Shown here: in pieces, positions 618 through 40,100 of the stretch | How positions within the stretch are numbered: the first letter of the stretch is position 1 | Layout: each line of letters begins with the position of its first letter | Translations under genes and position numbers: made by a program | Assembly: GCA_046563655.1 (NCBI GenBank) | Contig: CM102286.1 | Coordinates: 13,082,001 to 13,146,000, forward strand | Reading direction: 5' to 3' | DNA from: Yuukianura sp. NJ FZ-2021 | Lineage: Eukaryota | DNA length: 64,000 bases | Notes under the pieces: model-generated | Database searches by the model: none | What the model was told of the DNA's origin: nothing | What the model saw: only the letters and a program-made list of their open reading frames with translations

Positions 618-971
618 TGCGGAGCAACTTGTCTCTGTCTGCGCGGCATAATTTACACCCATGCCAAAGACTGTCCACAGCAGAGCACAGTGGGAATTCG
701 CGCCTTTCCTTTTCAAAAATCGAATGATTTTACGTTATGCTTTCTGTGTCAGTTGAGACGAACGGAAAATTTGAATTGCTGGCGGGAAATGCTTTTGTAA
801 ACACAAAAAACTCTCTTTGCTTTTCTTTCTTCTTCTTCGCTGATTTTTTTTTATTAGTCAAAATTTTTTGAAATTATATAATTAAATTTAAGCTAATTAA
901 CTACCAATTTCCGGCGTCAGTCGTAGACCTTCTTTTAGGGCAAACGTTCAGCAATCGGTGTGATTGTCAAA

Positions 972-2036
972 ATGAGCTTCGCCAACTTTCTACTACGTAG
1001 CAGATTTAGTACAGCTCCGGCTCGTCTGCCACCACTTCTGCAGTTATCGATGAAACCATACCCAACAGCCCTATCGATTCGGAGTTACCGTAATCTTAAT
1101 CTGAATCTAATGCAAAATATTGCCAAATCTAATACAGTACGGATACCGTCGTTACGTAATTCCATGTCTATTCAAGTCAACCTAGTTCGGAATTACAGCC
1201 TTGGTCCTCGACCTCCTGCCAGCGGTGGGCCAGGCGTTGGACCTAAATTCGAAAATCAACGAATTGCTACAAAATTTAGGCAAATGGATGGGATCCCACC
1301 TAGCTACGACCTAATTTACAGACTGAACTTTACTTCTCCCGTAGTCTACATTCAAGTTTTGAATATCATGGGCATACTTGTGGCAACTCTAGCCGTCTTC
1401 AGTTTGCTACTAAACGATGAGGATGGCCAGCGGAAGGCACCGGGAGATTCAGATTTACTGAAGACTTTTGAACGTGAAAAACCCGTCATGAATGAGGATG
1501 CACCGGAATTTGTCAAACGATATCAGGCTAACCTAGACTTGCCAACTCCCCACCCGAACGAAATGAATCACCTAAGCCTGCGTGAACTGTCGATACTATA
1601 TGGTGGATTACTTGTGCTAATGGTCGCCCTCATCCGTCTCCAAAGAACGCTGCCTATTCGGCTCTATACTAGTCCGTCAGTAAGTTACCAACCTAACTTA
1701 ATCATGTTTGATTTTAAGAGGACCTTATATTCACTGCAGTTTTACTATTTTCAGGGTCATAGCTACGCCGTCTTCTATGGTCATATAATTCCATCTCGTA
1801 CTACAAAACGTGAATTTGTCGCAGGAACTGTCAAACGCGTGCTCCGTCAGTCACCTATGCTTAGAACAGATTCTCTATATGCAGATGGTACTGGCAAACA
1901 AATGCTTCTACTCGACTACTGCTTCCGAAATCCATCTGACATGAACTACATCCTTGGAATATCCAATACTAAGCTCTATAAGGATGACGACAGTGACTCC
2001 TTCGGTGGCGGCGACGACAAGAAATCACACAAGTAA
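972..2036 (+). CDS. Putative mitochondrial inner-membrane protein (TMEM70/186/223-like architecture), 2 exons: 972-1679, 1755-2036; ~329 aa
   Basis: Long ORF starting MSFANFLLRSRFSTAP, with an Arg/Ser/Leu-rich, acid-poor N-terminus typical of a mitochondrial presequence. Two hydrophobic segments (VVYIQVLNIMGILVATLAVFSLL; LSILYGGLLVLMVALI) precede a soluble C-terminal domain. Phase-0 intron GTAAGT(1680)...TTTCAG(1754). AATAAA at 2267-2272. The family assignment is from architecture only. Confidence 0.7.
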   Translation: MSFANFLLRSRFSTAPARLPPLLQLSMKPYPTALSIRSYRNLNLNLMQNIAKSNTVRIPSLRNSMSIQVNLVRNYSLGPRPPASGGPGVGPKFENQRIATKFRQMDGIPPSYDLIYRLNFTSPVVYIQVLNIMGILVATLAVFSLLLNDEDGQRKAPGDSDLLKTFEREKPVMNEDAPEFVKRYQANLDLPTPHPNEMNHLSLRELSILYGGLLVLMVALIRLQRTLPIRLYTSPSVSYQPNLIMFDFKRTLYSLQFYYFQGHSYAVFYGHIIPSRTTKREFVAGTVKRVLRQSPMLRTDSLYADGTGKQMLLLDYCFRNPSDMNYILGISNTKLYKDDDSDSFGGGDDKKSHK

Positions 2037-2465: not shown

Positions 2466-3762
2466 ATGGAACTCGGAGCTACTGTGAAGAGGTTACCAAC
2501 GCCTTCCGTTCTGAAAACGTCTTTCGAGCTTCGAATCAAAGGAATTGACACGATTACTAAAAAAGACGCAGGATCGTCGTCAGAGCGAGGAACAGAGCCG
2601 GCTAACTTCATTACGCCCGGTAGAGTCATTACACGCGAAATCGGTTTTATGAGGTAAGTTTACAAGTAACGTTATCAATCATCAATAACACTGGAAGGAT
2701 AAAAGGATGGATGTAAGGCTAATGTTCTCTCCTTTATCCTAGGGGACATGGAACCTACACGAATGTTGAAGATCAGTGTCTCGTCGGAAGTCTTGTTGGA
2801 ACAGTTCAACGGGTCAATCGTTTAATTTCTGTCAAGGGCATCGGTGGAGTTTATTATGGCGAAGTAGGAGACGTCGTGGTTGGAAGAATTACAAAAGTCA
2901 TGCAGAAGAGATGGAAAGTTAACATCAACAGTCGCCTGGATGGAATCCTGCTACTTTCCAGTATCAATCTTCCGACAGGGGAACTGGTGAGTTTGACGGT
3001 TTGATCGTGAAATTGCAAAAGCTACTAACCATTTGTTGAATTTAGCGACGACGATCGGCAGAGGACGAGCTAGCCATGAGAGAAATCTTAAAGGAAGGAG
3101 ATGTTATTAGTGCTGAAATTCAAAGTGTTTACAATGACGGAAGTTTAGCATTGCATACCAGAAGTGTCAAGTATGGAAAAGTAAGGTCAACTTATGCATA
3201 ACAGAAGATGAATTGTTCTAATGATTCTAATGTCCTCTTAATTTGCTGTTCCTCAGTTAGGTCCTGGCACCATGATCAAAGTATCTTCACTCCTAATCAA
3301 ACGCCGGAAGAATCATATACACAACCTGCCCGGTGGGACATCAATTATCATTGGGAACAACGGCCTCGTGTGGATCTCTCCGTTGCCGAATGGACGAATG
3401 CCTGGAACCAACTTAGAGGAAGAGCAACCGGAAGGCGGCAAAACAGCTTTAGAAGAGGTGAAGATTTCGCACGCTAAATATAAAGTTGTACATTTACTGC
3501 TAACGAGACTAACCTTTGTTGTATGCATCTACAGATTTCCGTAAGCAGTGCCGATCGAACCAATGTTGCTCGCCTACGAAATTGTATCTCCGCCCTGGCT
3601 AACTTATGGCTTCCAATCTACGATACAAGTGTAATGTACGCACATGAAGCTTCCATGAGATACGAAGTAGCTGAACTACTAACGGTGGAAGTTATCAACG
3701 AAATCGGAGAAGTCGTGAGAGCTCGAATGGCAGCCGACGCTAATGACACAATGCATGAATGA
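2466..3762 (+). CDS. EXOSC2: Exosome complex component RRP4; exons 2466-2653, 2743-2986, 3046-3180, 3257-3457, 3535-3762; ~331 aa
   Basis: The spliced translation contains RRP4 hallmarks: ITPGRVIT..GFMRGHGTY, GEVGDVVVGRITKVMQKRWKVNINSRLDGILLLSSINLPTGELRRRSAEDELAMREILKEGDVISAEIQSVYNDGSLALHTRSVKYGKLG, IIIGNNGLVWIS and VARLRNCI. All introns are GT-AG and the phases are consistent. Confidence 0.97.
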
Positions 3763-4896: not shown

Positions 4897-7203
4897 ATGA
4901 AGAAACGAAAACGAGGAAAGGTAGGAAACGATGATCCAGAAAATGCAGAGGAGGACGGAGATCTGTCCATGATAATTATACCGAAAGAGAAAATACAGGT
5001 GGATTGGAATCACGTATCACTTGAGGAAAACTATATCGGTAAGCACGATTACTGCTATGCATTGTACGGATTCTTTTGTCTAAACGTAATTGACGTGTTT
5101 TGTATATTTAGTGCCAGATCCGGACAACCATTTTAATAGTGGGACACTCAAGTTCTTAGAAAGTGAGGATGGTTTGGAGATTAATAGGAAGCGGCGGTGC
5201 AAATCTCCCGATGCTGTTCATGTAAGTATTATATTGCAACTTGACTAGCGTGTTCGATTTAAAATAGATGCTTGAGTTACTGATTCTGCACTACCTTTAG
5301 CTGTCATCGCTTATGGACTCAAACGAAGGCGTGGACAGAGTAATTAGTCAAGATGTTGCGGTTCGACTGTTGCCACAGAGGGAAAATGCAATGTTGAATG
5401 AACTTGTAAGGTTACCAACGAACTTTTTGAGCGCAAATTGCAAAGCGTTACTAAAAGTTGATTGTTTAGATACTCGTCAACCTGATGCAGTTTGCACCTC
5501 TGAAAGAACTAGCTCGCAACCGCCTCGTATGTAAAAGATGGAATTTAGAAGCCACGGAGTTCATGAAACGACAACATCTGATTGAAATTGTTGATGATGG
5601 AACTCGTCGCTGCATTGCCTCGTTCATCGACTCCATGCGGCATTCCTACATGATGCCCTTTAGAAGATTTGATATTCTTTTCAAGGATCGAATGCCGAGA
5701 AAGTTGCCGAACTCTTATCGAACTTTCTTCTTCCTCTACGGCGGATTTATCAATCATCTCAGCATCGGGTTTCTTCTGGACTGCGAAGTCAACTTTTCTG
5801 TACATACGTTTCGCAACGTTTTCCTGATGTCCGTTCCAAACTTAATTTCGTTGGCGATAGATCTTCCGGTGATGACAACGTCTGAACCCTCGATATTCAT
5901 TCGGGAAAAGCGGATTCAGTTTCATAGATTGGAGAGTATTCTCATTCAAGACTTTATAGAAGACAATGAAGACACGAGTGATAAAAGTCGTCAGAGGTAC
6001 AGCCCAGGCTTTATGGCGGATCTGCTGAAGGCTGCTCCAGCTCTTCGGAAGCTCAGTTTGTTCACGGAAAGCAGAATGCTGATGGGTCGAATCGTCACTT
6101 CGCTTGAAACGCTGAAAATGAACAAAAGTCCTTTGACTTTTCTTCACTTGGATGGAACAGTGACCGAAGCGGATTTAAATGCTCTCGCTACATATCAGTT
6201 CCAGCTCCGCGGAATCCGAATTCGGTGGCTGGGCTCTGACGTTACAAAGAAAACTTTAGAACGATTTTTGACAGTTCACAAGAAGTCACTGGAGAATCTA
6301 TGTATTGGGGATCGTTGTGAATATGGAGAAGTGGGAGAAGACCCGAGAAGATTTCATCTTCGGTTTCCAGCAATGGAGAAGCTCAACGTTCTAAAAGTTA
6401 CTCGTCGATGTTGCTTTTCTACGAGACATCAAGGAAAGTTCTACTTGACTACAGGACTCTACCAGCTTCCAGTTCTGAAGAAATTAATTTTTGATAATGA
6501 TTTTCCTGAACCATTTCCTCATGCCGAAGATTTCTTTCCGAAATGTGACCGAAAGTGTTTATCGCTCAAGGAACTTGACTTTTCTTGTGAACTGTTGGAT
6601 TATTCCATCTTCCATGATATTGCCAAAGAGTGTCCAGAGATCACAACGCTACGGTTAACTCATGCCACAAGTTCGTTTCTCAAGATTATCTTTCAGTGCA
6701 TGGTTAACCTCGAAACGCTGTTTTTGTATCTTCCGGTTTTTGGACGCGGAAAAGGAAACAACATTGGATCCTTATGTATTCAGTTGGATGTTCGGAACTG
6801 CCGAAAGATTTGTATTTTGAGAAGTCCTCGGGAGGGCTACTGGTTTACCGTTGTTTTCAAAAAACCGGTCGTCGGAGTTTTGAAAAGTGAGTTGCTTTAC
6901 TATGTAACACAGCAATATATAAAAAAAATTCCCTAATTTTTGGTCTATGTTTTCAGAAATTCACACACTGGAGGTTGAAACTCGAAGTTTGAGAAATTCT
7001 GTTCATGACGTTCGCGTACTAACGAAATTTCAGGAGCTTAAAACGCTTTATTTCAACAGGAAGGTAAAAAAAAATCATAATAACCTTTTAGTTACGTTAA
7101 GTTAAACCAAATGTTAAATTTCAATTTTCAGTTGACTAACAAGTACCGTCGGGCTCTCCTGAATCATCTGCCAAAAGTGAAGATCGTCGAAGGCGGTTTG
7201 TAG
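4897..7203 (+). CDS. F-box protein with LRR-like C-terminal region; exons 4897-5038, 5112-5221, 5301-5405, 5470-6886, 6957-7063, 7132-7203; ~650 aa
   Basis: Splicing exon 3 to exon 4 gives NAMLNELILVNLMQFAPLKELARNRLVCKRWNLEA (F-box consensus). Degenerate LRRs follow (PNLISLAI, PALRKLSL, FPAMEKLNVLKV, LPVLKKLIF, CPEITTLRL, MVNLETLFL). Basic NLS-like clusters KKRKRGK and RKRR. All introns are GT-AG and in phase. Confidence 0.85.
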
Positions 7204-7908: not shown

Positions 7909-8735
7909 TTACAGCTCTCCGTTTTCAATTGCTTTGTTAATCTCTGCCACAATTTTGGTTAGTAGTTCGTATTCAGAAGTTCCACGTCTGAAGGAAATGT
8001 CCATAAATTTAGGATCTTTTAATAGACTTGTGACACTTCGAATTCTGTTGATAGATTTCTCAGTAAGGTGTGACTTTACCAAGGTCACGATAAGGTCTTC
8101 ACTCTGATTGATCGAGGTCACCAGAAATTTTTGGTCGTAACTGTAGTCTACCTAAAATTTTAGAAAAAAAATTTTTTTTAACTCAGAATTATTAAAATTT
8201 TCGAAAAAGACAAACATTTATCATAATTGTTGTTATGCTTTACTCAAATACGGAATTTTGGGAAATTTTTTCCGTACCTCTATGAAGCTCGTAATAGTCA
8301 TTGCAATGTTGCGGAATTTTTCAGCAAATTTATTTGCCACTTTAAGCTCATCAGGAGAAAATTTGTCATTTTGAACCAACAGTCCAATTTTCATGGAAAG
8401 TTTGATTATGTTTTTGACAAATTTTTCTGCAACTTTTTTGTCCTGAGTCTAAAAATAGAAGAAAAAAAGTGCGTGCAAAGGTTAAGTTATGAAAAAATTT
8501 TCTCCTGTCCATGTTTTTAGTTTTTTAAAATTTCAGCTATCAAAATTTCAAAATTTTGTAAAAATTTTTTACTTACGTAGGATTTGACTAGTTGATACAC
8601 CAGATCTAAGAGTGTTGAAAGAGATTCGTTGATTAAAGTTTTTGCTACTTTTCGACTTGCAAATTGTCCGAGAATTTTCTTCTGAGCTCTCATGACGAAA
8701 TCCTTGGCTTTGAAATTACTTTCTCCACTCATCAT
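7909..8735 (-). CDS. TNFAIP8: TNFAIP8/TIPE family protein (Drosophila sigmar-like); exons 8735-8577, 8448-8278, 8151-7909; ~190 aa
   Basis: Spliced translation FKAKDFVMRAQKKILGQFASRKVAKTLI...KKVAEKFVKNIIKLSMKIGLLVQNDKFSPDE...AMTITSFIEVDYSYD...HLTEKSINRI matches the TNFAIP8 family. Phase-0 GT-AG introns. Confidence 0.95.
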
Positions 8736-11700
8736 GCAATTTTTGGTTTCAGAAAATCGAAAAAATTGCCAACGTTCAAGTTCGCGTCAAGCCGTGGACA
8801 CTTTCCTTTCAATAGTCCGAGATTATTTGCAAGGTCTCAAGACTTGTGAGATAAGAAGTAGCTCTGCTCTCTTCAAGTGGCGTCTATATTTGTCCAATTT
8901 TTTTTTTTCAAAATTTGCTTGATATCAACAATTTCAAAAATACAAAACCTTCAAAGAATTTTTTATTTTAGTTGTTACCTCTTCAGTTTAATATCGCCGT
9001 TTGCCGTGTTTCAGTTGAAGTTCTCACCATGAAATTTTTAACAGATCCAAATCGTGTATTGTGTTGGTCGTGGTCTTGAAATTGTTTAAAGCATCTCTGG
9101 TGCAAGGCTAAGCTCGTTAAACTTTTGCTTGTTTTTGATTCAACTCCTGTTTTTAGAAAACGAAATTAGACTTTGTGAAAGTTTCTGTTCTGTTTTTGAA
9201 CTGAACACTTCTATTATTTCCTATCGACGTGTCCCCGTTGCCTCAAACCTGGATTTTGAAAAACCGCAAACTGGGTTTATGGACATGAAATCTGGCAAAT
9301 TTCCTTGTGAGCATTTCAATGGGTGCATGTAATATATGGCCTTCATATGGGGTTTAAATGCACAGTAAACTTAGGAATAAGCTAGAAGTTCCATTTCGGG
9401 GGAAGTTTACATTAGTCATTTTGTTAGGTTGGGACAAAAACACAGGGTTAATTTTGACGAGCAAATGCTAATGACGTATACGTTTACTAGTCGCTTTTGT
9501 TATAACTACTATAATAATTAGCTAGTATTAGGCATATTACTACTCATTAACTCCACTGACTCCCAAAACATTACAGAGTTGTAAAGGAATTAAAGTCGGA
9601 TTTGAAGTTTCAAAATGACGAGTGCGTCTCCAAGATTAAATTACTCTGTGTATATTTTTAGGTTTTGAATTGTATTGTGTAGTGCTCTGTTTTGGTTTTT
9701 GTTTGCCATGCTAAACTACAATGGAAAACTTTCAAAAATAAAAATTATGCAAGAAACACAGAAAAAAAAACTCAAAATTCGTGTTTGCATTTTTCGAAAA
9801 TTGTTCACTACCGTTTGGCGATGATGAGCAATGTTTCTTTGAATCTTCTGATTTATTTGACTGCTCTAATTTTTTTTTTGGTTAAATCTAATCTCCTCTG
9901 CTCTGCATTTGTTTCATTTTGCAAAATACGTGTGACTTTATTTGATTAGGTGAAGGTCATCGTAGTCTAAGCTTCTGCTTATTTACAGATGTTCTGGAAA
10001 TTCGATCTTTGAAGAGCAACTTTTAAGAATTTATGACACTTTTCACCCACGCGCTAAAACTCTGAATGCGTAATAACCTAACCTAAAAACTGTGATTCCA
10101 TAACTTTTCTCATTCAATTGAGATAGACTCAACGGCGTCCTTCTTTTGCTCAAAATGATCATTGACAAGGACGTTTGTGGAAGTGAAAGTTGCTTGAATC
10201 TTAGATTTTATGCTTATTCTTTTCCAGAATGGAAATGATCCAGACCATGATCAGAAAATATGAAAATAAAGTTTGATTAGAAAATCTTGTGAAGATGTGC
10301 TTGATGCTCAAAGTTTGTTTGAAAGGCTGAACAGAAAACCAAAAAGTCTCAATTCTCCAAATTGCAACTTTTTTTTGCGAAAGTTTGGCAAATCTACAAG
10401 TTAGGATCTGCTGCACCCATTGTGCCATTACCATTTAACACAACGTTGTTCAATTGCGACAGAAATTGTTCTGCTCATGAATGCTAAATCAGTATTTTAT
10501 GACCTTATATTTCCCCATGCTCAAACACTTGAAAGTCTCCACGCCTTACAGTTTATTGAAGCTTATGCAAAAAGATTATTACCAACTCAAGGAACTTTTT
10601 ACTGCCAAAAATTATTTGTTTACTTTCTCTGTTCTTTCTGTCCGTTCCCTCCCTGCTTCCAGAAGTGACGTAATTTTTGCAACTTCTATTCTCCGTTGAA
10701 AGTGATGAAAGTACAATAAAAGTCTGGCAAAATTTCGGCAGAAAGTGTAAATTTAAAAAAAATACTCAAAATCCTTGTCTTTGGACTTGTTGTGCAAATA
10801 TTTTTAAAACTTTTTCTTTAAACCTTGATTTTTTTTGCTGATTCAATTTAAAAAGTCCAACTAAATTTCCTGTTTCTGAGTTATTAAAATTTATGACACT
10901 TATACACTTACCAAAAAAAAGAAAGAAAGATTTTTCACACTCCAAAGCACTGAAATAATGAAGACTTGTTTTCGGCAATATAGAACAGAACAAAACTGAA
11001 GATTTTTCCAAAGATTTTATACTTTTTTTGAGAACTTTCAAAATGACGTTAAGCACCTTGTAAAAGTAAGAAACGAGAAGCAACTGTTTTTTAAACAACA
11101 ACAAATGAATGAATTTCTGCTATTTCTTAGAATCCGAAAAAACGTAATTTGCTAAAAATCGAATAGGATTTTGAACTAGAACTTCTGGAGCACACGCAGA
11201 TCTTGAATTCTCTGAATTTGTTTAAACTTCAATGAAATTCAAACGGTGTTTCAACGGTGTACAAAATTCAAGTACTACCGAAAACCATCTGCCTTTTTGT
11301 TAATACCGTGAGTTGGCTCCCTTCAGAAGGACTTGGAGGGAACTAAAACCGCTTTTAGCCTTAACTTTTTTTCAAGAATCTGGGAGAGCCTCTGACCCGG
11401 TGAGTTCAGCCCAATCAAAAAAAGAAGCTTTTGATCTTGCCAACTTATCCAAAGTCCAAGTTCACTCTAACTTAGTCAGATCCATCGTGCTTGAAAGATG
11501 CACCAGCGCCTTACCTCAAAAAGATGAAGATTTGATCAAAAAAGTTGATCCTTGATGTAATGATTTCATGATGAGATTCGTGTGAGGTTGGCCAAAGCTA
11601 AAAGCATTCTTCCATGTCCCACTGTCGTTTTTTCTTGCTCATCTTCTCAACCAGAAGATGAGGAAAAAATGTGCTGACAGAATTCGAAAAAAAAAATTCA

Positions 11701-13046: not shown

Positions 13047-15404
13047 AGAACAACTCAAATTCCAAATTAAACTTTCAAAAAATTTCAAAAAAAATTTGAA
13101 ATTTTTCTACCATTTTCCTATTGTGTGTTAGTGCAAAACTTACTTTCTCTCCTTTCACCACCTTTTATAAGAGTTCGACTTAATTCAAGCGAAAGTCCGT
13201 CAGATGGTAGTGCTTTCTGGTTTTTTAGCGGCATTTGGAAAAACAAAACAACAAAAATTTGTGTTTTTCTAGAAAAGTAGTAAAACTAGAAATAAAAATA
13301 CTAATAGCTGGAGAGCATGTGGATACAAGCACCAACTTTTAATTGACACAGTAAACATTTTTAGTTGATAATCAAAATGGGATTGGGAAAGTCGGAACTA
13401 AAATCTGATTAACGTCTCTCTCAATCCCGAAACTTTTCCGCGTCATTTTTTACTCTTAGTTTATACGATTACGGTTTAGTTGAATTTTAGAACAGAACAC
13501 ACGAGTCTGAGCTTGCGCTGCGTGAAGCGGTGCAAAATGTTTAGTCGATCTTCAAAAAATTTTGTGTTTAAGAGGAAACTATAAAATGTTGAAAGTGACT
13601 ATGAAATTTTTACTTTTTTTGGCCATCAATAGACTTCTCCCGTTACGTTAGTTTTTTCCCGCCAAACAAAATCCACATTTGACGGAATACCTGTCATTTC
13701 GAGTTGAAATAAAAAATGGCGCGCGGAGGAGGTAAGCACTGCTGTGACTAACTCCCGTGTCCTACTTTAGTTTTATCTCTGAAAACCACGGTCTCCGCAG
13801 CGCTGCTTTCACCGGTTGGTGCTGTTACTAAAAAAAAGTTGAGGGAAAATTAAATTGTGAATGTCCGCTAAATTCACTTTTCGTTTCTCTACTTTATGAC
13901 TTACAGTGTCTTGGCTCTGGGCGACATTCAGAAGAAAGTGGAGGATTCAAGGTGACTGATTTTAGGGTTTTGAGTTTAAGTGATTTTCGTTTTGGAACAA
14001 AATCCTAAGAAAATCCGTTCAATCTGTTCTTTTTCTCCGAAGATGCAACTTTAAACCTCTGCGGATTTCGTTTGACAATGGAGCAAGAAGTAACTGGATA
14101 CTTCCTAGAAAGTGGAGTTCCAATTCTAAAAAACTTTGTCTCTTGCTTCCGAGTCTTCTTCACCTGTCTAACGTTTGCTCTTTTTGGTTTAAAATCAGAT
14201 TGAACTGGATTTATGATGTTACAGTTCCAGAACACTTCTAGCTATATCTTTCTCAATTTCTCCATCAAGAGCATCAGATAAGTCGGACGAGTTTGAAATT
14301 CTAGAACATTTCTCATTTTGTTACTTTGCTTTTTTTCCTTGAAATTGGGTCTGAAACAGGGAAAAAAAAGTGGCTTTAAAGACCAATATTAAAATTACGG
14401 TTGGATATATTTTAAACTTTAACTTTCATCACTTTCACCACCAAACTTGTAAGCAGCTATAGGCAAAAATTTTTTAAATAAATGTGTGTATTTTTGTACA
14501 TGATGTTTTTGTGAGTTTTCAAAAAAAAAGCGGAAGAATATCGAATGCGAATTTACTTGAAAATTTTAACTTTCTGCAATTTTTTTTTGCTTGACCTACA
14601 CTTTGCCAATCACGGTTTCCTGACCTTTCCCATGTTCCTACTGTTTTGGCCTCTGACTCTTTTTGTGTTACGTTGCGTTTTTTTCTTTCGCCTTTTTGAA
14701 CTTTTGTTGTTGTTTTTTTTTGCCAACAAGAAAGAGGAGATAGGACAGTGACATATATTTAGGAATTCCTTTTCTTGTATTTAATTAAGACAAATAGACT
14801 GTTTTATTTGGAGAGAGACAGGTATTTTCTTCTACGAAAATGACTCCATTTGAGCATTAGAGCACTTTCACTTACTTTCTCCACTCAAAAGGAGCCTCTA
14901 TTTCCAGGAGGAATAATAAAACAAATGCGCAGTTTCTCTAAATTAAGCTCATCAACTTACCCATCACTCTTCACTTTAAATTTAAAACGAGATTTGTAGG
15001 GCAAGGTTTTTTTCAAGCGCTTTTTAACGAATCAGAAACAGCATACACACAGTTTTCTGCTTAGGAAAATTTCACTTTAAAAATTTTTTAAAAGAATTCC
15101 CGCCATGGCAACCCGAAAAATAAATTTTTTGGTTTTAAAAACAAAATATATATTTTTAGGAGGCATACACGTTTATAAATAAAATGATTGTAAAGGTTTT
15201 TGAAAAGTTGTAAAAATTTGTAAAAACTTTTAGGTTTTTGTAAACTTCACTTCAAGGTGAGATTGCATATTCGGGCAGAATTTCAATTTTCGTTATTTCT
15301 TGAAAATCAAGGTGTTTTTTTATGCGAAATTGTTATATTTGGCCAACAGAGTTCGAGAGGTCATGGAATTGTTGACCTTTAGTAAACTCAGTTCTCAAAC
15401 TAAC

Positions 15405-15905
15405 ATGGCTCGCTTCGTTGTCACTTCATTGATGCTCTGCTCACTGTGGATCTTCCAAGCATCAAATGCTGCCTCAGCGCAAATGACCTCTGACCTCTCA
15501 AATGAATTACGAATCTGGAGCAGTGTTGTTCATGACCCCGATGCAACCGTCAACCTGAAACGCATGAAACGTCATTCCTTGGAGGGAGAAGCATTGCCAA
15601 ATCCAGAAGATGAAGAATACGAAGAAGAATACGAAGAAGATGAAGAAGAGGAGGGGGCAGGCGAAGAAGAAGAAATTGATGAGGATAACCCGGCAGATTT
15701 GGTGGCGCATCAGATTAAGATTGAACCTGAAGATGAAGACCTGTTTCCTCCAGACTGCTCGATACTGTACAAAGTCATTGCAGACTTTGAAGGAAGACAA
15801 GCGGCACGTCGTAACTCAACGTCAGGTCAAGAGTCAACAAAGGTCAAAGGTCAACTCTCACTACTCGTCTACACTCCTCTCCTCATGGGCATTTTTCTTC
15901 CATAA
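15405..15905 (+). CDS. Acidic secreted or GPI-anchored protein of unknown function; single coding exon, ~166 aa
   Basis: ORF in AACATGG context with signal peptide MARFVVTSLMLCSLWIFQASNA, a KRMKR cleavage motif, a long Glu/Asp tract and a hydrophobic C-terminal tail (LSLLVYTPLLMGIFLP). AATAAA at 15971. An alternative in-frame ATG lies at 15363. Confidence 0.7.
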   Translation: MARFVVTSLMLCSLWIFQASNAASAQMTSDLSNELRIWSSVVHDPDATVNLKRMKRHSLEGEALPNPEDEEYEEEYEEDEEEEGAGEEEEIDEDNPADLVAHQIKIEPEDEDLFPPDCSILYKVIADFEGRQAARRNSTSGQESTKVKGQLSLLVYTPLLMGIFLP

Positions 15906-24149: not shown

Positions 24150-26299
24150 TTATTTAATTGGGTGCAGTTCAAATGCATATGGTTTGGCAAATCGAAAAAA
24201 ACTGACCATAGCTTGATTTTGAATGTCCAATTCAGTTAGTGGACCCAGTGAGGGGTCAAAGGTCAACTTAAAATTTTGTAAAATTGTAGCTATGTAAAGA
24301 AAGAAGGCGCTACGCGTAAAGGCTTGGCCTAAGCAGGTTCTTAATCCCACTGAAAAAGGCAATGATGGCGGGACAGAGTTCGCTTCCTCTCCCAAAAACC
24401 GTTCGGGCCGAAACCGTTCCGGATCACCCCACAGCTCAGGGTCGTGATTGGCTGCATACAAGTTTCCGATGAGAACGGTTCCGGTTGGAATCTCAAAACC
24501 GCGAAACACAACATCCGAAGTTGCTTGGTGGAAATTTGCAAATGGTGCACTGGATGACACGCGCAAAACTTCTTTCATGAACGCCTTAAAGTAGTCCATT
24601 CTGAACAAAAAAAATTGCATATGTTTGTATCGTAATAAACATGTGTGTTGATTAATTAAATTTATATTTACCTATTAAGGTCATCCAAATTAATTGGACG
24701 AGGGTTTCGTTTTCCCGTTATTTCTTGTATTTCGTCCCGAAGTTTTTGTTGTACATCGGGGCGAGCAGCCACGAAAGCGAATGCCCAGTTGAGAAAATTT
24801 GCAAAAACACCTACTCCAGTTGTGAACAGGTTCATCAAGGTGCCGATAAGGTTACCCTCTAAAAATTTAACACAAGGCATTTCTTTTTGTAAACTTGTGC
24901 TAAATTTACTCTAACTATGAAAATACTAACCTCCCACTTCATCACACAAACATGGGGGAAAATTGTCATTCTTTTGTTCCACTCTAAGAAGCCACGCTCT
25001 TATGAAATTGTTAGGGTTTCTGGAAGCGTCGAATGTCGTAGAATGGAATTGACCTTCGTCAATGTCAAAGCCAAGGTCACGTTTGACGTCATTGACTGCA
25101 TTTTCAAGAATTCTGTGGAGTACATCAACGGATTCTTTGGCGTCCTTATACCCAGTAAGTGTTGGGAAGTATTGTACAAGTTCTCTACTCATCCAAAACG
25201 CGTCTCCGATGGGTAAAAAAAATTTGCTACAATTGAAAGTAACTATATCATTTTAATTTACTTGAAAATGAATTATGTTTGCGTACTTTTGGAAATTCAG
25301 AACGTGTTTTTGAAAGATGACGCTAGATTCGAAGTCAAGGTTTTCACCGCTGAGGATATGCCACACATATTGCGTAATTGGAACCATGACAGCATCGCGC
25401 ATGCACACGAGTGAATCTCCATTTTGCATATTTTGTTTCAAGCGTTGGATCAAGCATGTAATGCCTTCCGTCATCAAGTCATTACTAGAGCGTGGTACAA
25501 ATCCTACTTCGGCCAACACTTTGATTGTTAAGTTTCGAATTATTTCCCAATTTTGGTACGAAGTTGAGCTAACCGTACCTAAAAATTAGTAAAACTAGTA
25601 AACTAGTTTTAAACTAGAAAACACACCGTATAATTGTTTCAAATTCACTATTACTATATTTAATTCAAACTATTTTTGAGGATATTTTTTTTAGTAAAAA
25701 AAATCTAACCTCGATTAAATCCTCCAGCAAAAACCTCGACGGGTATAAATTGTGGACGTGCAACAAAATTCACATTTTGAAACGCTTGTTTCAAGATTTC
25801 TGCGTCACTAAGAAGAACTACGCGGTAAGATCCAATTTTGAGCCCAACAATTTGGCCGTACTGAGCTCTCCATTTTAGTAGGGCTTTAAGCGGTGACCTT
25901 CTAAACTCAAGCCAGTTTCCAACAAACGGCAATTGAAACGGACCTTTGGTAAATGAACTTAAATTACAAAAAGGCTCAAAATTCAAGTCCGTCAAGTCCA
26001 TAACAGCAAACCGGAATTGTCATGAAACATTGTCTTAGCAGAAAAATTTCAAAATTTCCAGAAGATTTACAATTCTCCCTGTAAAACCCGACTTTCAATC
26101 TCCAGTAACCACCATCTCAGGAGTATACCACATTTTTTTTTAAAATAAAAATGAACGAATTTTGAGAAATACTTTTACCTGGTGGAAATTTTGAAACAAT
26201 GACAGTCTTTCGCTTATGGATCCAAAAACACAAACTGATGAAGATAACCGTCAAAAAAACCGACTCCGTTCCGAGACCAGGGATGAGTTTCGAATCCAT
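24150..26299 (-). CDS. Cytochrome P450, CYP2-clan-like (paralog A); exons 26299-26179, 25943-25710, 25578-25287, 25226-24931, 24858-24672, 24600-24150; ~526 aa
   Basis: N-terminal TM anchor, PPGPFQLPFVGN hinge, WEIIR (C-helix), EVLR (ExxR), PERFRPERF and PFSVGLRTCLG heme ligand. Six exons total 1581 nt with no frameshift or stop. Confidence 0.95.
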
Positions 26300-26819
26300 T
26301 TTATTTTTGAGTCACGCTGTTTGAAATTCACGGTTGGTTTCCTGTAATAGCTGCTTACATCAGAGATGAGATGAGCCTTTAGTGTGTCTCTTTTTAGAAG
26401 GCGGTTGTAAAAGTGGAAAAAAATTCAGTCGACTTAACATAGAAATCCTCAATTATTATATATTAGTATATTACATATAAACCTAATGGAGGAAGTGTTT
26501 TTTAAAAACTAAGTTTTTCATAAGCGTCATAATGGAAGCGAAAAAAAGGACAAAAAAAATTCCGCCTTGTAAAAAGAGACAATTTATAGCCTATAATATA
26601 ATCTTCAATCGATTGGTTAGTTGAATCTATATTTAGTTAAATTTCAAAATGAAAGTATAGGAAATTGGCAGGGATTGAATTCTGTATTGTAAGGTACCAC
26701 ACTTATTCGTCCTCTGATTGTGCGGCGCAAAAAGAAATATAACCCAGAAATGCTACGAAGGAAACCGATGACGATGCAAGTTACCCTAAGGCGCTGCCTG
26801 ACAAACCTTTTGTCTTGTG

Positions 26820-27275
26820 ATGCTACTTTAATAAAATGTAGCAAAAAGAAGCTCAGTTGGAGGCTTTATAATTGATTACCTTCACAATTCCAACTAATGA
26901 GCAGTTATCGGTCGAAATAAGCAAAGTAAGTGTGTGTGAAAATCAATGTTCAGGATTCAACAAAAAAAATTACACCGGCCTTAAAATCCTTGAAATTTAG
27001 TTCATTCGTGTATAGAAACTTCGTCATGGAATATTCTGAAATACACTACGTTCACTATCGTTCAGTTTTAATTCTAAAATTGATGGTCACTCTAAACTAT
27101 TTAACCAAATTAGAACTATTATATAATATCTGAAGAAACTTAATAATTTTAGGTGTACTTTATTTTTTAAGCGCAGTGGTACGCCTTAAAATCTTCATCT
27201 TATTTTCGATCGACGCGTTCAGAGTTATCTTCAGATTCTAATTTTGAAGAAATAGTAATACACTACTTTCACGTT
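26820..27275. repeat. Non-coding segment upstream of CYP A, homologous to 29670-30235 upstream of CYP B (part of a ~3.1 kb tandem duplication)
   Basis: Blocks shared in the same order, e.g. GGTCACTCTAAACTA, TGAAGAAACTTAA, TTTCGATCGACGCGTT, CTTCAGATTCTAA and TTGAAGAAATAGTA. Confidence 0.85.
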
Positions 27276-27329
27276 TTAATTTAAACGCAGTCGATCTTGC
27301 TTCTCCAAAGAGATAATGATCCTTATTTT

Positions 27330-29389
27330 TTATTCAATAGTTTTCAGTTCAAATACATATGGTTTGGCAATTCGAAACACACTTACGAGAGCTTGATTTT
27401 GAATGTCCAGTTCAGTTAGTGGACCCAGTGAGGGGTCAAAGGTCAACTTAAAATTTTGTAAAATTGTAGCTATGTAAAGAAAGAAGGCGCTACGTGTATA
27501 GGCTTGGCCTAAACAAGTTCTTAATCCCACTGAAAAAGGCAATGATGGCGGGACAGAGTTCGCTTCCTCTCCCAAAAACCGTTCGGGCCGAAACCGTTCC
27601 GGATCACCCCACAGCTCAGGGTCGTGATTGGCTGCATACAAGTTTCCGATGAGGACGGTTCCGGTTGGAATCTCAAAACCGCGAAACACAACATCCGAAG
27701 TTGCTTGGTGGAAATTTGCAAATGGTGCACTGGATGACACGCGCAAAACTTCTTTCATGAACGCCTTAAAGTAGGGCATTCTATACAAACAAAATTATTA
27801 AGCAGAATTTTGCAAATGTATTAATTGTAATAAAAATTTATGTTTACCTATTAAAGTCACCCAAATTGATGGGACGAGAGTCTCGGTTTCCCGTTACTTC
27901 TTGAATTTCGTCACGAAGTTTATTCTGCACATCTTGGCGGGCAGCCATGAAAGCCAATGCCCAGTTGAGCGTATTTGCAAAAACACTTACTCCAGTTGTA
28001 AAAACGTTCATCATGGTCCCGATAAGGTTACCCTCTATTTAAAAAAAAACGGATTTTTTTTTGAAAATTTCGAAAATTTCCTTAAAAACGAAATATTATA
28101 AAAATGCTAACCTCCTTCCTCATCACACAAACATGGGAGAAGATTGACTTTTTTTTGTCGAACTCTAAGAAGCCACGCCCTTATGAAATTTTTTGGGTTT
28201 CTGTAAGTTTCGATTGTCGTAGCCAGTAAGTGACCTTCCTCAAGGTCAAGGTCACGTTTGATGTCATTCACAGCATTTTGAAGAATTTTGTGGAGCACAT
28301 CAGCGGCTTCTTGGGCGTCCGTATACCCAGTAAGTGTTGGGAAGTACTGGACAAGTTCTCTACTCATCCAAAACGGACTTCCGATGTGTAGATAAAATTT
28401 GCTACAATTGAAATGACTATATAATTTTAATTTATATTAAATGACATTTTTTTTCGTACTTTTGGAAATCCAAAACTTGTTTTTGAAGTTTGATGCTAGA
28501 TTCAAGGTCAAGGTTTTCTCCGCTGAGGATATGCCACACATATTGTGTAATTGGAACCATGACGGCATCGCGCATGCACACGAGTGAATCTCCATTTTGC
28601 AAATTTCGTTTCAAGCGCTGGATCATGCCTACGGTTGTTTCCGTCATCAAGTCATTATCAGGACGTGGTGCGAATCCTACTTCGGCCAACACTTTGATTG
28701 TTAAGTTTCGAATTGCCTCCCAATTTTGGTATGTAGTTGAGGTAATAGTACCTATTTTTTAAAAACTGGTGAATTTTGCGGATATAATGTTAAATAAAAA
28801 GTTCTAACCTCGATTAAGTCCTCCAGCAAAAACCACGATGGGCATCAATTCTGGACGAGCAACAAAATTCACATTTCGAAACGCTTGTTTCAAGATTTCC
28901 ACGTCACTAAGAAGAACTGCGCGGTAAGATCCAATTTTGAGCCCAACAATTTGGCCATACTGGGCTTTCCATTTTAGTAGAGCTTTAAGCGGTGACCTTC
29001 TAAACTCTAGCCAGTTCCCAATAAATGGTAATTGAAACGGACCTTCGTTAAAAAAAGTCACAAACTTCAATTTTGCCAAGTCCATCCATAACAGAAAACC
29101 GGAAAATTTTCCTGTAATCTTAGCTGATCTTAGCAGAAAAAATAAATTTCCAAAATATTTACAAATAATCTCCCAGTAAAAACCGGGTTTTATTTTCCAG
29201 TAATCGCTTTCTCTGGATGAACCGCATTTTTTTCACAAACGTGAACGAAGTTTATGAAATATTTTTACCTGGTGGAAATTTTGAAACAATGCCACTCTTT
29301 CGCTTATGGATCCAAAAATATAAACAGATGAAGATAACCGTCAAAAGAATCGACTCCGTTCCGAAAGCAGAGATCAGTTTCGAATCCAT
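27330..29389 (-). CDS. Cytochrome P450, CYP2-clan-like (paralog B); exons 29389-29269, 29042-28809, 28751-28460, 28401-28112, 28034-27848, 27780-27330; ~524 aa
   Basis: Same motifs and identical intron positions as paralog A; 1575 nt open spliced frame. Confidence 0.95.
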
Positions 29390-31149
29390 TTTATTTCTGA
29401 ATGACGCTATTAAAAACTGTAGATGCGGTGTTTGACGTAATCGCTTTTTTACGTCAGTTGTCAACCTGTTCTGCTGCACCACAATCTTCACCCGACTAAT
29501 TAGATGAAAGTATTCAGGTGAATCTTAAAGGTAAAGTAAATGACGTTCACAGGAATTGACTGCACTAACTTATTCATTAGTATCCGTGACCATCACAGAA
29601 AGATCCAGAGTTGCTCTAATTAAAACTAATGTTTTAATTTAGCCCAAGGCGCTAATCAACAAACCAAAGTGATTCACTTTTATAAATACTTGGTGTAGCA
29701 AAAGCAAATTGCGTCAGAGGCTCATAATTACCCTCACTAGTTCCAAATGAGCAATTATCTTAAACAAATTAAAATTCTTTGGTCTAATTAATAAAAGTAG
29801 TCGTGTGTGAAAATGAATGCAAAAGAAACACAAGTTTTTCTCTGTTTTCCTTTCCATAACTTTTTTTTTATTGAAGTTTTCCAGTTTTTAACAGGAGTGA
29901 AATACGCAGTGAAGTTTTATTATTGTAACATAATATATATAGATTTATCTTCTAATTTTTACTTTTTAACTTCACATTAACTTTTTTTGTCGCAAAGTTT
30001 TTAGGCGTAACTCTTAACTTTATTTTTTCTCTTCAATTCTAAAATTGAGGGTCACTCTAAACTACGGAAGAAATATAATATATGTTTGAAGAAACTTAAA
30101 TACTTTTAGGTACACTTTATTCTTTTAACAGTAGCGGAGTCATGCGCCTTAAGATCTTCATTTTATTTCGATCGACGCGTTAAGAGTTAGCTTCAGATTC
30201 TAAAACGTTGAAGAAATAGTATACACAACTTTCACTTTTTGGTTCAACCCAAGTAGCACACAAAAACACACTTTTACTCCAACTTCAAAAAAAGTTTTAA
30301 GTTCCAGGTTCTCTTCTGCTTCGGTTTTTACAAAATCACGTTTCCATTTTGAATTGCAGAAACGAATGGAAGTTGGGGAGTTTGGGCTGAATTGGTGTAT
30401 TAATTGTCAATTGAAAAATTAGCACTCAATTGACTCCTGTGTGACGCCAAAAGTTCGGAAAGTGTTGGGATGGTGAAGCTAAATCAAAGTTAGCGTTGGA
30501 CTGGAACTGCAAAGCTCTTTTTATCCTCGTCTTGTTGAATTCGATTGAGGCTTCTTCAAAGGAATAAATTTGGAAGCAGAGTCACATGGGGGCATGGACT
30601 TGGCATTTGACAAGTTCTGGAGTGTGCTAATTGAGGAATAAAAGGATTGGAAAGGGGCGGAGTCAGCACGAAATGATGAGTCTTGTGTGGTTAGGTTAAT
30701 GTTAGGTTAAGTTATGACAGAAGACGTAGTAGCAGCTTCCAGTTAGATTAGAATAACTTTTGACTTTTGACAAGTTGAGAAGATGATTTGACTAAGGCAC
30801 TTTTCCTGTTTGTAGATCAAATGTCATTTTAGAAATTTCTGTTTGAACAGAACCTGCTACGTCTCATGTTTTCAGCGGACTGCTGTCCTTCCGTGTGCTT
30901 TTTCGGGGGTGAGAGGTTAGGCTAACAAAGGGGCCGCCAAGCCACATCAAACGCTTGTCCCTGTCACTGGCAGAACAAATAGAGTCACGGAGCGGGTAGT
31001 TTGAAATCCTGGATGTGAGGAGTTGGTAGAGGCGGGAATTTTGGCGTAGTATGACAACATGTCTCCCGCTTCCCTTGTTCTAACTCTGGGTTTAGGAGAT
31101 GTTGAATATGCAAATTTTTTTGAAGAAGAGCACCACAGAGTGGCTCGGT

Positions 31150-37100: not shown

Positions 37101-40100
37101 ATTCCTTCCTGTGCTTTTCTTCGACCTCATTCTAAAACGTCTTTTGTGTTGTCTGGATTCATTCAAATTCAATCAGGAAATGAGAACCAGAGGAAGTGTG
37201 AAATTTCTTGTGCTTTTCAGGAAGATGAAGGAATGAAATGGGAGAGGAGAACAACTGAATTGATTTTCATTTTGGAGAAACGTTTTCTAACAAACATTTC
37301 TTGTATGAAAAGAGATTGAAATGAAAATTCTAAAAAATTTGTTCTATACTGCTGAACTTTTACTTACTTAGAAAAATCTTTTCGTTGCTGGAGAAAGTTG
37401 AAGTAAGAGAATAATTTTGGAAAACGGGCAAATGGAAGAACTTGTGTGATTGTGAAATTCTTGTGCATGACTAAACGGATGAAGAATCTTGACTGATTTT
37501 GGTACATCTTCCTCTTACCTACATCTTGCTCTGACGCTTTTTTTGACACTTCTATCGCATTTGAACAATGGATTTTGAACTCTGGGAAAATTTCCATCTG
37601 CGTTTACACTAAAAACCTCTTCAAGAAAGGCTTCAAAATCTAAACGTCTCTTCCGTGTTTTCTTTCACACTTCAACATAACAAAGTTCAAAATAAATATT
37701 TCACCTCCAGAAACGCAAAAGGCAATACAATTTTGAAAATTCACTCACGACTTTAATCAAAATACTGACTGCAATTACTGACTAGTGTAACTTAATGGGA
37801 AAACCGATTTTGAAAACGGTTCTATAAAAAATTAGAAGCAACAATAATTAGAGACAAGAAAGCTCGAGATTCTGTTTACCCATGAATTTTTTTTTGCAAT
37901 TATTTATTTGATATTTGGAGACTTTTTCTTAAATACAGAATGACATGAAAATTTCAAAAAATGTTGTTTCTATTTTTTCTTTTGAAAATGTTGTCGCAAG
38001 CTGTCAAATATTGTTTCATTTTGTAAATGGTGCATTGACAAAAACCACAAGGGAAAACAGCCCTTTTTGGAAAACTTTCACTAAAAGTTCATTGTTTTCG
38101 TGAATGTGCAATTTTGAACTTTTCTCTTTGAATTGTCTAAACATCAGAAGAATCGACCATTTGGACATGAGTCTATTGGGACTTTTAGTAGTGCACTGCC
38201 CATGTCTAAATTTGTTCTGATGGATACTTTCACTTTTCAAAGTTTCCAGAATTTCCAGAAACTCCGAAGTGAAAGTGAAAGCTTCACTCGTTAGCTCCCT
38301 CTCCCTGAAGAATTGACCTCAAAAGGGCAATGGTCCATGGGCAGTTGACCACCGAACCAGAGCTTCTAGTTCAACGGTTTTTGTGGACACAGAGGCTTCA
38401 TAAACATGTCTGCTCCTGGCATCTGACCCCAATGACCTCTCTGCATGTTTCATCCATCTTCCGAACCTCAACTGGAACCAAATGGACTTCATTTCCACTG
38501 AGAACCACAAATTCACTTTCTCCCGGGGAAAATAAATGTGGACTTTCACTTTTCGCTTCATAATTTTCAGTCTAGCTCATGATAAATCTGGTTTCGGTTT
38601 CAGTTTCTCCCTGGATGCGTCCAGACAAACTAATTAGCCCCTGTCCGTTTCACTTTTACGGGTTTTCGACAAGGCGGGAATTGGGCGGGAACGGATTTTC
38701 GCTTTTTGAAAGTAACGAAACCCAATTGGATTTCCGAACACAGAGTCCGGGAGATTCAATTTTCGTTTGCTTTTGCGGATGTTTACTTTCCTGGACTCAT
38801 TAGAAACGATGGGAACTTTTGCTTTCACCGTAAATCGAAAAGCAATCAGTCAAGAGAGCCGAAGCTGAGCTTGGACTTTGTGGACAGTGTTTGAAAAAAG
38901 CGTCAAAAGCAAAGCGCTGGAAGGCGCTGAAGCGACACTGGACTTCACAAAATTGTTTTCTCATTACGTTTAGTACACTTCGGCCTCAAATCTTTGTCCA
39001 GGCAGGATAGGATATCTGTACCAGCGGCAAGTTTAGAACAAAAGAAGAGTACTTTGTTCTACTTTTTGTGAAACGACAGTCGTACTGCCCCAACGTTTAT
39101 GACATGGGACTCATTTCGGTCGGGAACAAAGTATTACTCTATATTATTTATATTTTATATATTATTTTATTTCGAAAAGTGTCAGGTTTCTTACGGTTCT
39201 GCCCTGGAGGAGAGCCACAGCACAGTCGAGCATGACAGTCGTTCCAGCGCGGGCTGAAATTGAAACGGAAGTTTTGTTGCTCTCAAAGTACGGACCGACA
39301 ATTCGGGACGAAGAAGGAAGCTGTAGAGGTTCGTCGTCATTGGACGGCGACGGACCGTCACCGCCAGCGTTCTGGACAGAATTACGCCGAAATCTCCTTT
39401 GTTCAAGTTGACTCGTCACGGTGGCGTGGGTTCGAAGCCCAGTCGGGAGAAAGTTGAAACTAGGGCGGAGGCCAAAGGTCATCGGAAATGTCACCATAAC
39501 TCCACTGCTACTGCTGGAACTGACTTGGTCTAAATTAGTGTCGTTTTCCTTCCGGAAGAAAGCGAATCCACCATGACCTTGTTCGTCCTTCCCACCATAC
39601 GACTCATCTGGTCGATAATCTAATGACAAAAAATGAAAAGTTGATATATATTTTCAAAAGTTCAAAAAAGTTTTTGATGTTTTTGAAAAAAGAAGCACCA
39701 AAAGTTCAAAATCCTGAATGAGGAAAACTTTTCAAAGTGCACATAAATTTTGGTGTTTGTCACTTTGTTACTTGAGGTCAGTAGGGCATAACCGGAAATA
39801 TTTTGAATTTCACTTCTTTTCGTTTTTTTTTGAAAAAGTTGTTTTTCATTTTTGTAAAAAGTTTTTAGGTCAAGCAATTTCGAAATGGCCACTTTTCTAA
39901 GAAGTCCATCCATGACAAGCTAATCTCCGGAAATTCGAAACAGTTTCCTGAAAGCGGAATTTTTAAAAGTTCGCACCATGTTCCCGCTTTCTTTTTGTGT
40001 ACTTTCTCCTTTTCTTTTTAACTTTTAGAAAGTATTTATGCCACTTCCAGGGGTTCAGATTGATATTCCATTTCCGCCTCGACTCATTGCCTTCATCACA

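Follow-up and report, generated by a model that had tools for sequence, protein, structure and literature searches.

The window analysed here, a stretch of 64,000 nucleotides from Yuukianura sp. NJ FZ-2021, contains two cytochrome P450 genes of the CYP2 clan, A and B, which lie in tandem on the minus strand and comprise 6 exons each with no internal stop. The genes run past the span of 24672..28034 noted in an earlier, sequence-only reading, with A extending from 26299 to 24150 and B from 29389 to 27330. The features of the locus are:

24150..26299, minus strand: P450 gene A, 526 aa, open frame, GT-AG introns of 235, 131, 60, 72 and 71 nt
26299-26179, 25943-25710, 25578-25287, 25226-24931, 24858-24672, 24600-24150, minus strand: exons of A
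24327..24356, minus strand: heme-binding motif of A with the axial Cys, canonical length (from the sequence)
24785..24832, minus strand: I-helix centre of A with N324, T328 (Ala/Gly site), G331 (acid), V332 (alcohol) and N335
24938..24955, minus strand: PCLCDE in the H-I loop of A, kept in A and B alone (from the sequence)
27067..27277, unstranded: upstream non-coding block of A, matching 30032-30240 upstream of B at 80% identity (self-blastn)
27330..29389, minus strand: P450 gene B, 524 aa, open frame, GT-AG introns
29389-29269, 29042-28809, 28751-28460, 28401-28112, 28034-27848, 27780-27330, minus strand: exons of B
27507..27536, minus strand: heme-binding motif of B with the axial Cys (from the sequence)
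27961..28008, minus strand: I-helix centre of B with N322, T326, S329 (acid), V330 (alcohol) and N333
28119..28136, minus strand: PCLCDE in the H-I loop of B (from the sequence)

Each gene has 5 GT-AG introns with phases matching between the two, and the proteins are identical in 433 of 526 aligned columns (82%). As the similar non-coding blocks lie upstream of both genes, the tandem duplication of about 3.1 kb must have taken in upstream DNA. WxxxR, ExxR, PERF and the heme Cys motif are present in both spliced models, which confirms the open frames and intact motifs described earlier. The helix C motif reads WEIIR in A and WEAIR in B, the position three residues ahead of the Cys in the heme motif of A is Leu instead of the usual Lys/Arg, and Pfam p450 matches fall within exons 2, 5 and 6 of A. 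Both proteins also retain the PPGP hinge and a hydrophobic anchor at the N-terminus; we regard them as heme-thiolate CYP2-clan enzymes that are anchored in the ER and arose by a recent tandem duplication. The dN/dS between them is 0.50 (Fisher p 6e-5), well below 1, and ranges from 0.16 to 0.27 in the 7 other paralog pairs for which dS could be estimated, 2 more being saturated. These values speak against neutral evolution and support the view that both are intact genes under purifying selection.

The I helix of canonical P450 monooxygenases carries the motif (A/G)GX(D/E)T (PMC9663428), which is found in neither protein, the acid and alcohol positions being G/V in A and S/V in B. The 16-residue stretch in question is NLFTTGVGVFANFLNW in A (24832-24785) and NVFTTGVSVFANTLNW in B (28008-27961); it aligns with canonical CYP2s without gaps, as does the family profile with the I helix of the solved CYP2R1. 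This gapless register assigns the acid and alcohol sites to G331 and V332 in A and to S329 and V330 in B, so that the loss of the pair from two intact P450s, as first noticed in the letters alone, has withstood the comparison. The notion that one of the Thr residues of FTTG acts as the catalytic Thr is ruled out by the same ungapped alignment with CYP2R1, in which they precede the alcohol site by 4 and 5 residues and the second occupies the Ala/Gly position. A missing pair is unusual but not peculiar to A and B: D/E plus T/S occurs in 62 of the 82 P450 models of the genome, while both residues are absent from 11, 4 of them in the A/B family and 7 among the 77 others.

In the tree, A and B fall into a clade of 12 sequences (support 100/100) that comprises five genes of this genome (A-E) together with relatives from Folsomia candida and from metagenomes. 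These five genes each have six exons and an open frame, and they occupy three loci. With CYP3 and other-clan models as the root, the clade falls inside the ordinary CYP2-type sequences, and its sister group consists of CYP2s of the same genome which keep Glu-Thr (98/96; L040, L041, L047 and L054). This topology supports the assignment of A and B to an arthropod P450 family of springtail type that stands apart within the CYP2 clan, in agreement with the subfamily proposed in the sequence-only reading. The best solved match of the family profile is CYP2R1 (E 1.8e-71), and a P450 fold is supported by the AlphaFold model of the relative P0001, a Glu/Ala sequence distinct from A and B, which is predicted with a pLDDT of 93 and comes closest to CYP2R1, 2A6 and 17A1 (TM 0.82-0.86, with 0.86 to CYP2R1). 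P0001 has an uninterrupted frame in its contig, which does not count as a sign of expression, as the overlapping contig L056 looks genomic. Among the best 150 matches of a profile search over 1.84 billion representatives, the family members are P0001, P0060 and P0086. Many other sequences among these 150 are fused gene models, and matches in the ESM Atlas were to generic P450 clusters only. A literature search found no paper on the A/B family, though an existing CYP name or remark is possible.

Within the family, the acid and alcohol positions vary widely, with seven combinations in 11 sequences: G/V, S/V, I/A (two), I/T (two), E/A (two), E/S and V/T (two). A valid pair is kept in one member (P0165, Glu-Ser) and Thr in four, while A-D have lost both residues and carry a purely hydrophobic residue at the Thr site. 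Other polar residues are fixed, namely Thr120, Asn324, Thr328, Asn335, Asn399 and Ser510 in A numbering. Thr occupies the Ala/Gly site in 10 of 11 family sequences, in none of the 77 remaining genome models and in 2 of 90 library matches, and Asn is found in SRS5 in 15 of 15 family sequences compared with 2% of 63 other CYP2-type models. The PCLCDE before helix I, singled out earlier as unusual, is indeed there in A and B but is not conserved in the family: paralogs C and D share the first Cys alone and E, P0001 and P0003 lack the motif, which rules it out as a functional family motif.

Because the usual oxygen-activating pair is absent and other polar residues are conserved instead, unusual chemistry in A and B appears likely. 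There is, in our judgement, about an even chance that both are specialised enzymes which would still depend on O2 and reductase, with a proton relay that is relocated or assisted by the substrate. The family would have specialised in a narrow substrate, probably an endogenous and polar one. Thr328, next to the heme at the Ala/Gly site, and Asn399 in SRS5 would have been gained first; we take both to face the active site from the SRS positions and from the alignment to CYP2R1. Together with a hydroxyl or amide of the substrate, these residues may have taken over hydrogen bonding and proton delivery, which would leave the acid and alcohol sites free to vary, while electrons would still come from P450 reductase and O2 would still be activated. 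The reaction could be a hydroxylation that the substrate assists, or else desaturation, C-C cleavage, coupling or another atypical oxidation. The retained membrane anchor, PPGP hinge and heme loop of normal length argue for this reading. Precedents are the bumblebee CYP9Q4, which has a Thr-to-Ala exchange and is reported to metabolise neonicotinoids still (PMC6675907), and CYP107A1, which is reported to oxidise substrates with Ala in place of Thr (PMC10741444); as described there, however, both lose Thr alone whereas A-D lose both residues. The atypical catalysis suggested by the sequence-only reading survives in part: an intact, selected and distinct CYP2-clan family stands, while non-monooxygenase chemistry is not established, given that CYP9Q4 and CYP107A1 are described as oxidising without the Thr and that relatives keep Glu-Ser (P0165) or Thr (four members). 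Of the options offered at that time, substrate-assisted protonation looks better supported than non-monooxygenase chemistry.

Possible as well, though less probable, is that A and B, along with C and D, have become independent of reductase and would rearrange, cleave or dehydrate a hydroperoxide, endoperoxide or similar pre-oxidised substrate. Such enzymes would resemble CYP74, CYP8A1 or CYP5A1 but would have evolved independently inside the CYP2 clan, with Thr328 and Asn399 positioning the peroxide. The missing pair and the hydrophobic Thr site of A-D are consistent with this, as are the basic residues for redox-partner docking: at seven positions which we take to form the docking patch, and which were picked after the sequence of A had been seen, A-D keep 2 of 7 compared with 6 of 7 in the sister CYP2s. 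A count as low is found in just 2 of 59 other CYP2-type models of the genome, 53 of which keep at least 4, and the other scorable CYP2-type models without the pair retain their docking residues (5 of 7 in L016 and L046, 4 of 7 in L103). In CYP2B4, R122, R126, R133 and K433 are named as contacts of cytochrome b5 (PMC4330534), and CYP74s are described as needing neither O2 nor a redox partner (PMC10813956). The striking raw counts nevertheless become weak once divergence is allowed for, which disqualifies the loss of the docking patch as a strong signal: the deficit has a z of -1.7 to -1.8 after this control, with A-D not being independent of each other, z lies between -1.4 and 0 over all 26 consensus-basic columns, and E and P0001 keep 4 of 7, as divergence predicts. 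The heme loop moreover lacks the nine-residue addition of the CYP74 type, and relatives keep Glu-Ser or Thr. A lipoxygenase search gave no match, with the control search likewise blank, and 25 peroxidase loci (from 63 matches; loci partial) contained no cyclooxygenase-type motif in the form that we take it to have. A more specific version, put forward tentatively as somewhat unlikely, would have A-D form an independently evolved reductase-independent P450 in the arthropod CYP2 clan, in which the pair and most of the basic docking patch were lost and a new Thr/Asn site would rearrange or cleave a peroxide-type or otherwise pre-activated substrate; oxylipin hydroperoxides from a fungal diet or a precursor in springtail defence could serve as such. 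If true, the family would preserve intermediates between monooxygenase and isomerase, with Glu-Ser, Glu-Ala, Ile/Val-Thr and neither residue.

It is improbable that A and B bind heme and a ligand with little or no catalysis, as carriers, sensors or uncoupled oxidases whose acid and alcohol sites drift. The variety of acid/alcohol combinations and the relatively high dN/dS between A and B would fit such a role, but the heme contacts and the Cys pocket are invariant across the family, the new polar residues are fixed family-wide and the deeper pairs are under strong purifying selection. That A and B are decaying duplicates, or that the motif results from misalignment or a gene-model artefact, deserves hardly any credence in view of five open six-exon genes at three loci, a dN/dS well below 1, an ungapped register, a motif contained in one exon and homologs in other organisms. 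As for a biosynthetic cluster, Pfam detected no terpene synthase or oxidoreductase partner in 141 of 173 ORFs of the window plus 9, nor in 74 of 149 ORFs around C, D and E, in a search which short exons would escape.

The CYP2 clans of springtails are greatly expanded, with 94-104 genes per Folsomia strain (PMC10087712), and few of their functions are known. The A/B family combines a conserved, non-standard active site with natural members that cover most partial states of the acid-alcohol pair, and so offers a ready-made set in which to test how a P450 can do without the proton relay. If A-D are independent of reductase, peroxide or isomerase chemistry would have arisen independently once more in animals; if they are substrate-assisted, they would be biosynthetic specialists of a known type that still offer a promising way into the chemistry of springtails.

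The closest named sequences come from Folsomia candida: OXA49861.1 (P0003) and XP_021951195.1 (P0004) as well as P0060 have the family signature of P-F-x-N-F, the heme motif and the C-terminal V-[SI]-x-x-R-F. P0003 belongs to the same clade and has the I-helix Asn/Thr/Asn of the family, but it retains Glu and loses Thr alone whereas A and B lose both; the models of P0004 and P0060 lack the I helix. The automatic names of the three are 'CYP2J2', '4p3' and 'vitamin D 25-hydroxylase'. Canonical CYP2s (the solved CYP2R1, 2A6, 2C8 and 2D6 and the sister sequences of this genome) are like A and B in fold, anchor, heme ligands and tree position, but the alcohol Thr is retained in them, as is the acid in nearly all, and they have Ala/Gly at the Thr328 site, a hydrophobic residue at the Asn399 site and more basic docking residues. 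The exception at the acid site is CYP2D6, which presumably has Val there, going by the PDB title 'V308E mutant'. The pair is also lost in the Schistocerca CYP304-like P0011, with Met/Val at the acid and alcohol sites, but this sequence lies outside the A/B clade and has 6 of the 7 basic residues for docking.

CYP307 (Spook/Spookier) of the arthropod CYP2 clan likewise lacks the pair, its reaction still being unresolved, and is described with GGHSA/V in helix I and H/YxxPR in place of WxxxR (PMC3766648). By contrast, A and B have TGVGV and TGVSV and keep WxxxR, so that membership is ruled out on the helix I and helix C motifs as described, the trees containing no CYP307 sequence. Of the patterns used to look for a CYP307 gene in the genome, one gave 0 matches, another gave 2, neither of them a P450, and a third was too loose, with 269 unscreened matches. 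The CYP74 clan shares a change in the pair region, as its I-helix groove is described as altered, but it is also described with nine additional residues in the heme-binding domain (PMC10813956), which are absent from the canonical-length heme motif of A and B and rule out membership. The motifs and the nested position in the CYP2 tree bear out an origin of the pair loss independent of CYP74 and CYP307. CYP74, CYP8A1, CYP5A1 and CYP152 are absent among the 30 Foldseek and 50 VIA-align matches listed, although they may still resemble the family. All or part of the acid-alcohol pair is lost in CYP8A1, CYP5A1 and CYP152. The CYP8A1/CYP7 type has Asn at the alcohol position, where A and B have Val, the Asn residues of the family lying 8 before and 3 after this site. 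Thromboxane synthase CYP5A1, a PGH2 isomerase, is placed in the CYP3 clan, as is CYP9Q4, whereas the A/B family groups with CYP2-type rather than CYP3-type models in a tree without a CYP5A1 sequence. Unlike CYP74, CYP8A1, CYP5A1 and CYP152, the A/B family sits among the CYP2s, and its mechanistic likeness to them is putative.

A six-frame motif scan of the window detects two P450 heme motifs. Both lie on the minus strand and belong to the tandem genes A and B:

26299-24150, minus strand: gene A, spliced model of 526 aa
29389-27330, minus strand: gene B, spliced model of 524 aa

Each gene has six exons with GT-AG introns of phases 1, 1, 2, 1 and 2 and no internal stops, and both products keep WxxxR, ExxR, PERF, the axial Cys, the membrane anchor and the PPGP hinge, so that the intact heme motifs and open frames claimed by the sequence-only reading are confirmed in the spliced models. 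The proteins are identical in 433 of 526 aligned columns, and the duplication unit of about 3.1 kb includes upstream non-coding DNA. Exon 6 (24231-24594 in A, 27411-27774 in B) shows just 5 differences over about 364 nt, in contrast to a dS of 0.18-0.32 in exons 2-5; this looks like gene conversion homogenising the region from the K helix to the heme.

The I helix lies entirely within exon 5. No gap interrupts the alignment of its central 16 residues to other CYP2s, nor that of the family profile to the I helix of the solved CYP2R1. This puts G331/V332 of A and S329/V330 of B at the acid/alcohol sites, which upholds the earlier claim that the pair is lost. A catalytic Thr from the upstream FTTG stretch is rejected: its second Thr (T328) aligns to the Ala/Gly position, four residues ahead of the alcohol site.

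Three further members occur in the same genome: C and D, arranged in tandem on contig C2, and E, on contig C4. All three have open frames and share the five introns of A and B. Protein searches add relatives from Folsomia candida (P0003, P0004, P0060) and from JGI and Logan data (P0001, P0086, P0165-P0170), which makes it likely that the origin is a springtail. Twelve members entered the trees, P0004, P0060, P0169 and P0170 being omitted as partial. The twelve are monophyletic, with an SH-aLRT of 100 in the tree of 71 rows and support of 100/100 in the one of 35 rows; 5 of them are fragmentary and span about 40% of the columns. The sister group (98/96) consists of four CYP2s of this genome which keep Glu-Thr, plus P0042. 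A and B fall in a distinct arthropod P450 group, as had been suspected: the A-E family is a real, lineage-restricted clade inside the CYP2 clan, under selection and with a remodelled oxygen-activation site. The PCLCDE motif noted before helix I is present in both A and B and limited to them; C and D have its first Cys alone, and E, P0001 and P0003 have neither Cys.

Structure prediction on P0001 (34% identical to A; 104 aligned rows) gave a model with pLDDT 93, pTM 0.92 and an I helix unbroken at 234-269, although the alignment is rich in canonical CYP2s, which may have pulled the predicted I helix towards the canonical form. Its best structural matches are CYP2R1 (TM 0.86), 2A6 and 17A1, and in a second comparison CYP21A2, 17A1, 2D6 and 1A1 (Z 40-42). 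The P0001 gene is uninterrupted in its contig (L055:615-2003), its frame continuing 56 codons upstream to reach a PPGP hinge and membrane anchor; in the overlapping contig L056 it is preceded in tandem by another, canonical-looking P450.

Eleven family sequences show seven acid/alcohol combinations (G/V, S/V, I/A twice, I/T twice, E/A twice, E/S, V/T twice), and if the ancestor had both residues, each would have been lost at least twice on the tree. Other residues (numbered as in A) hardly vary within the family but seldom occur in 63 CYP2-type models from outside it: T120 (7/7 against 0%), N324 (10/10, 14%), T328 (10/11, 0%), N335 (11/11, 5%; less distinctive because CYP2R1 also has Asn there), N399 (15/15, 2%), L463 (14/15, 0%) and Q469 (15/15, 8%), with V509 and S510 likewise fixed and rare. 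By alignment, T120, N324, T328, N399 and S510 map to what we take to be substrate-recognition regions 1, 4, 5 and 6. With the acid/alcohol sites free but several other residues fixed, the active site looks rebuilt rather than decayed.

Among 82 P450 models of this genome (the best-scoring candidates, a subset of its P450s and some partial), 62 have D/E plus T/S, 5 lack the alcohol alone, 4 the acid alone and 11 both, 4 of these 11 being A-E family members. The pair is present in 83 of the 90 non-family proteins of alignment A3, none of which lacks both residues; the Schistocerca CYP304-like P0011, outside A3, lacks both. On these sequences the missing pair is therefore uncommon but not unique, even within this animal. 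Pair-less models occur in both CYP2-type and CYP3-type groups, and L016, L045, L046, L053, L089 and L095 read, for instance, G/A, V/P, M/A, I/N or A/G. The CYP2-type L103 (C1:7645200-7648300), whose heme position lacks a Cys and whose I-helix centre is basic, is a candidate pseudogene or pseudoenzyme. The long-frame, highly divergent L087, L088 and L089 on C4 (L087 and L088 on long branches; heme-motif F replaced by W in L087 and L089) possibly come from another clan or by horizontal acquisition.

The likeliest reading, about an even call, is that A and B would still require O2 and reductase and act on a polar substrate of narrow range, T328 and N399 together with that substrate standing in for the usual acid-alcohol relay; we infer all these catalytic steps, while anatomy, selection and phylogeny are observed. 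For the A-D branch, peroxide or isomerase chemistry that needs no reductase is a lesser but serious possibility. At seven proximal basic positions, picked after A had been inspected and presumed to be CYP2B4 docking sites, A-D keep just 2, P0003 3, E and P0001 4 and the sister CYP2s 6, while of 59 other scorable models (4 excluded for gaps) 53 keep at least four and 2 keep two. However, A-D are divergent overall: the deficit has z -1.7 to -1.8 after regression on consensus identity and, for A-D, -1.4 to 0 over all 26 consensus-basic columns, so that the low count is only suggestive of reductase independence. Four of the seven (CYP2B4 R122, R126, R133, K433) are cytochrome b5 contacts according to an extract of PMC4330534. 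A lipoxygenase search gave no match, as did its control search, and a cyclooxygenase-type motif was found in 0 of 25 peroxidase loci. Neighbouring genes gave no pathway clue, whether the RRP4 and TNFAIP8 matches in the window, the carboxylesterase by C/D or the wax-ester synthase-like gene by E. Their positions, with those of other coding stretches of the window, are:

939-2036, plus strand: coding stretch, unassigned 365-aa open frame
2723-3541, plus strand: coding stretch, RRP4/KH exons
5470-6936, plus strand: 488-aa frame, F-box/LRR-looking by eye
7912-8786, minus strand: coding stretch, TNFAIP8 exons
39162-39653, minus strand: Ig-like exon, by eye
L021:9243-9752 and L024:262-1146, minus strand: carboxylesterase gene directly upstream of C/D, same strand
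L022:5868-7548, minus strand: WS/DGAT wax-ester synthase-like gene, tail to tail with E

An open frame at 15261-15905 (plus strand), with a signal-peptide-like stretch, dibasic sites, an acidic run and no Pfam match, resembles a secreted peptide precursor. Non-catalytic ligand binding by A and B is unlikely. Decay or artefact is highly improbable, the Nei-Gojobori dN/dS being 0.50 between A and B (Fisher p 6e-5) and 0.16-0.27 in seven other family pairs, with two further pairs saturated.

No description of the A-E family was found in the literature searched, a scope outside which the main arthropod P450 review lay; those from F. candida have probably been given a CYP number in existing catalogues. 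Extracts of the respective papers report activity that survives loss of the Thr alone in CYP9Q4 (PMC6675907) and CYP107A1 (PMC10741444), and in plants connect bridge-forming and coupling P450s with Ser substitutions in helix I (PMC5913652). The nine extra heme-loop residues described for CYP74 in part of PMC10813956 are absent from A and B. CYP307 (Spook) was found neither among the 82 genome models nor by exact motif patterns in a non-exhaustive search. As excerpted from PMC3766648, CYP307 has its own helix C and helix I motifs, which A and B do not match, but like them it has no acid-alcohol pair, and therefore a precedent exists in arthropods.
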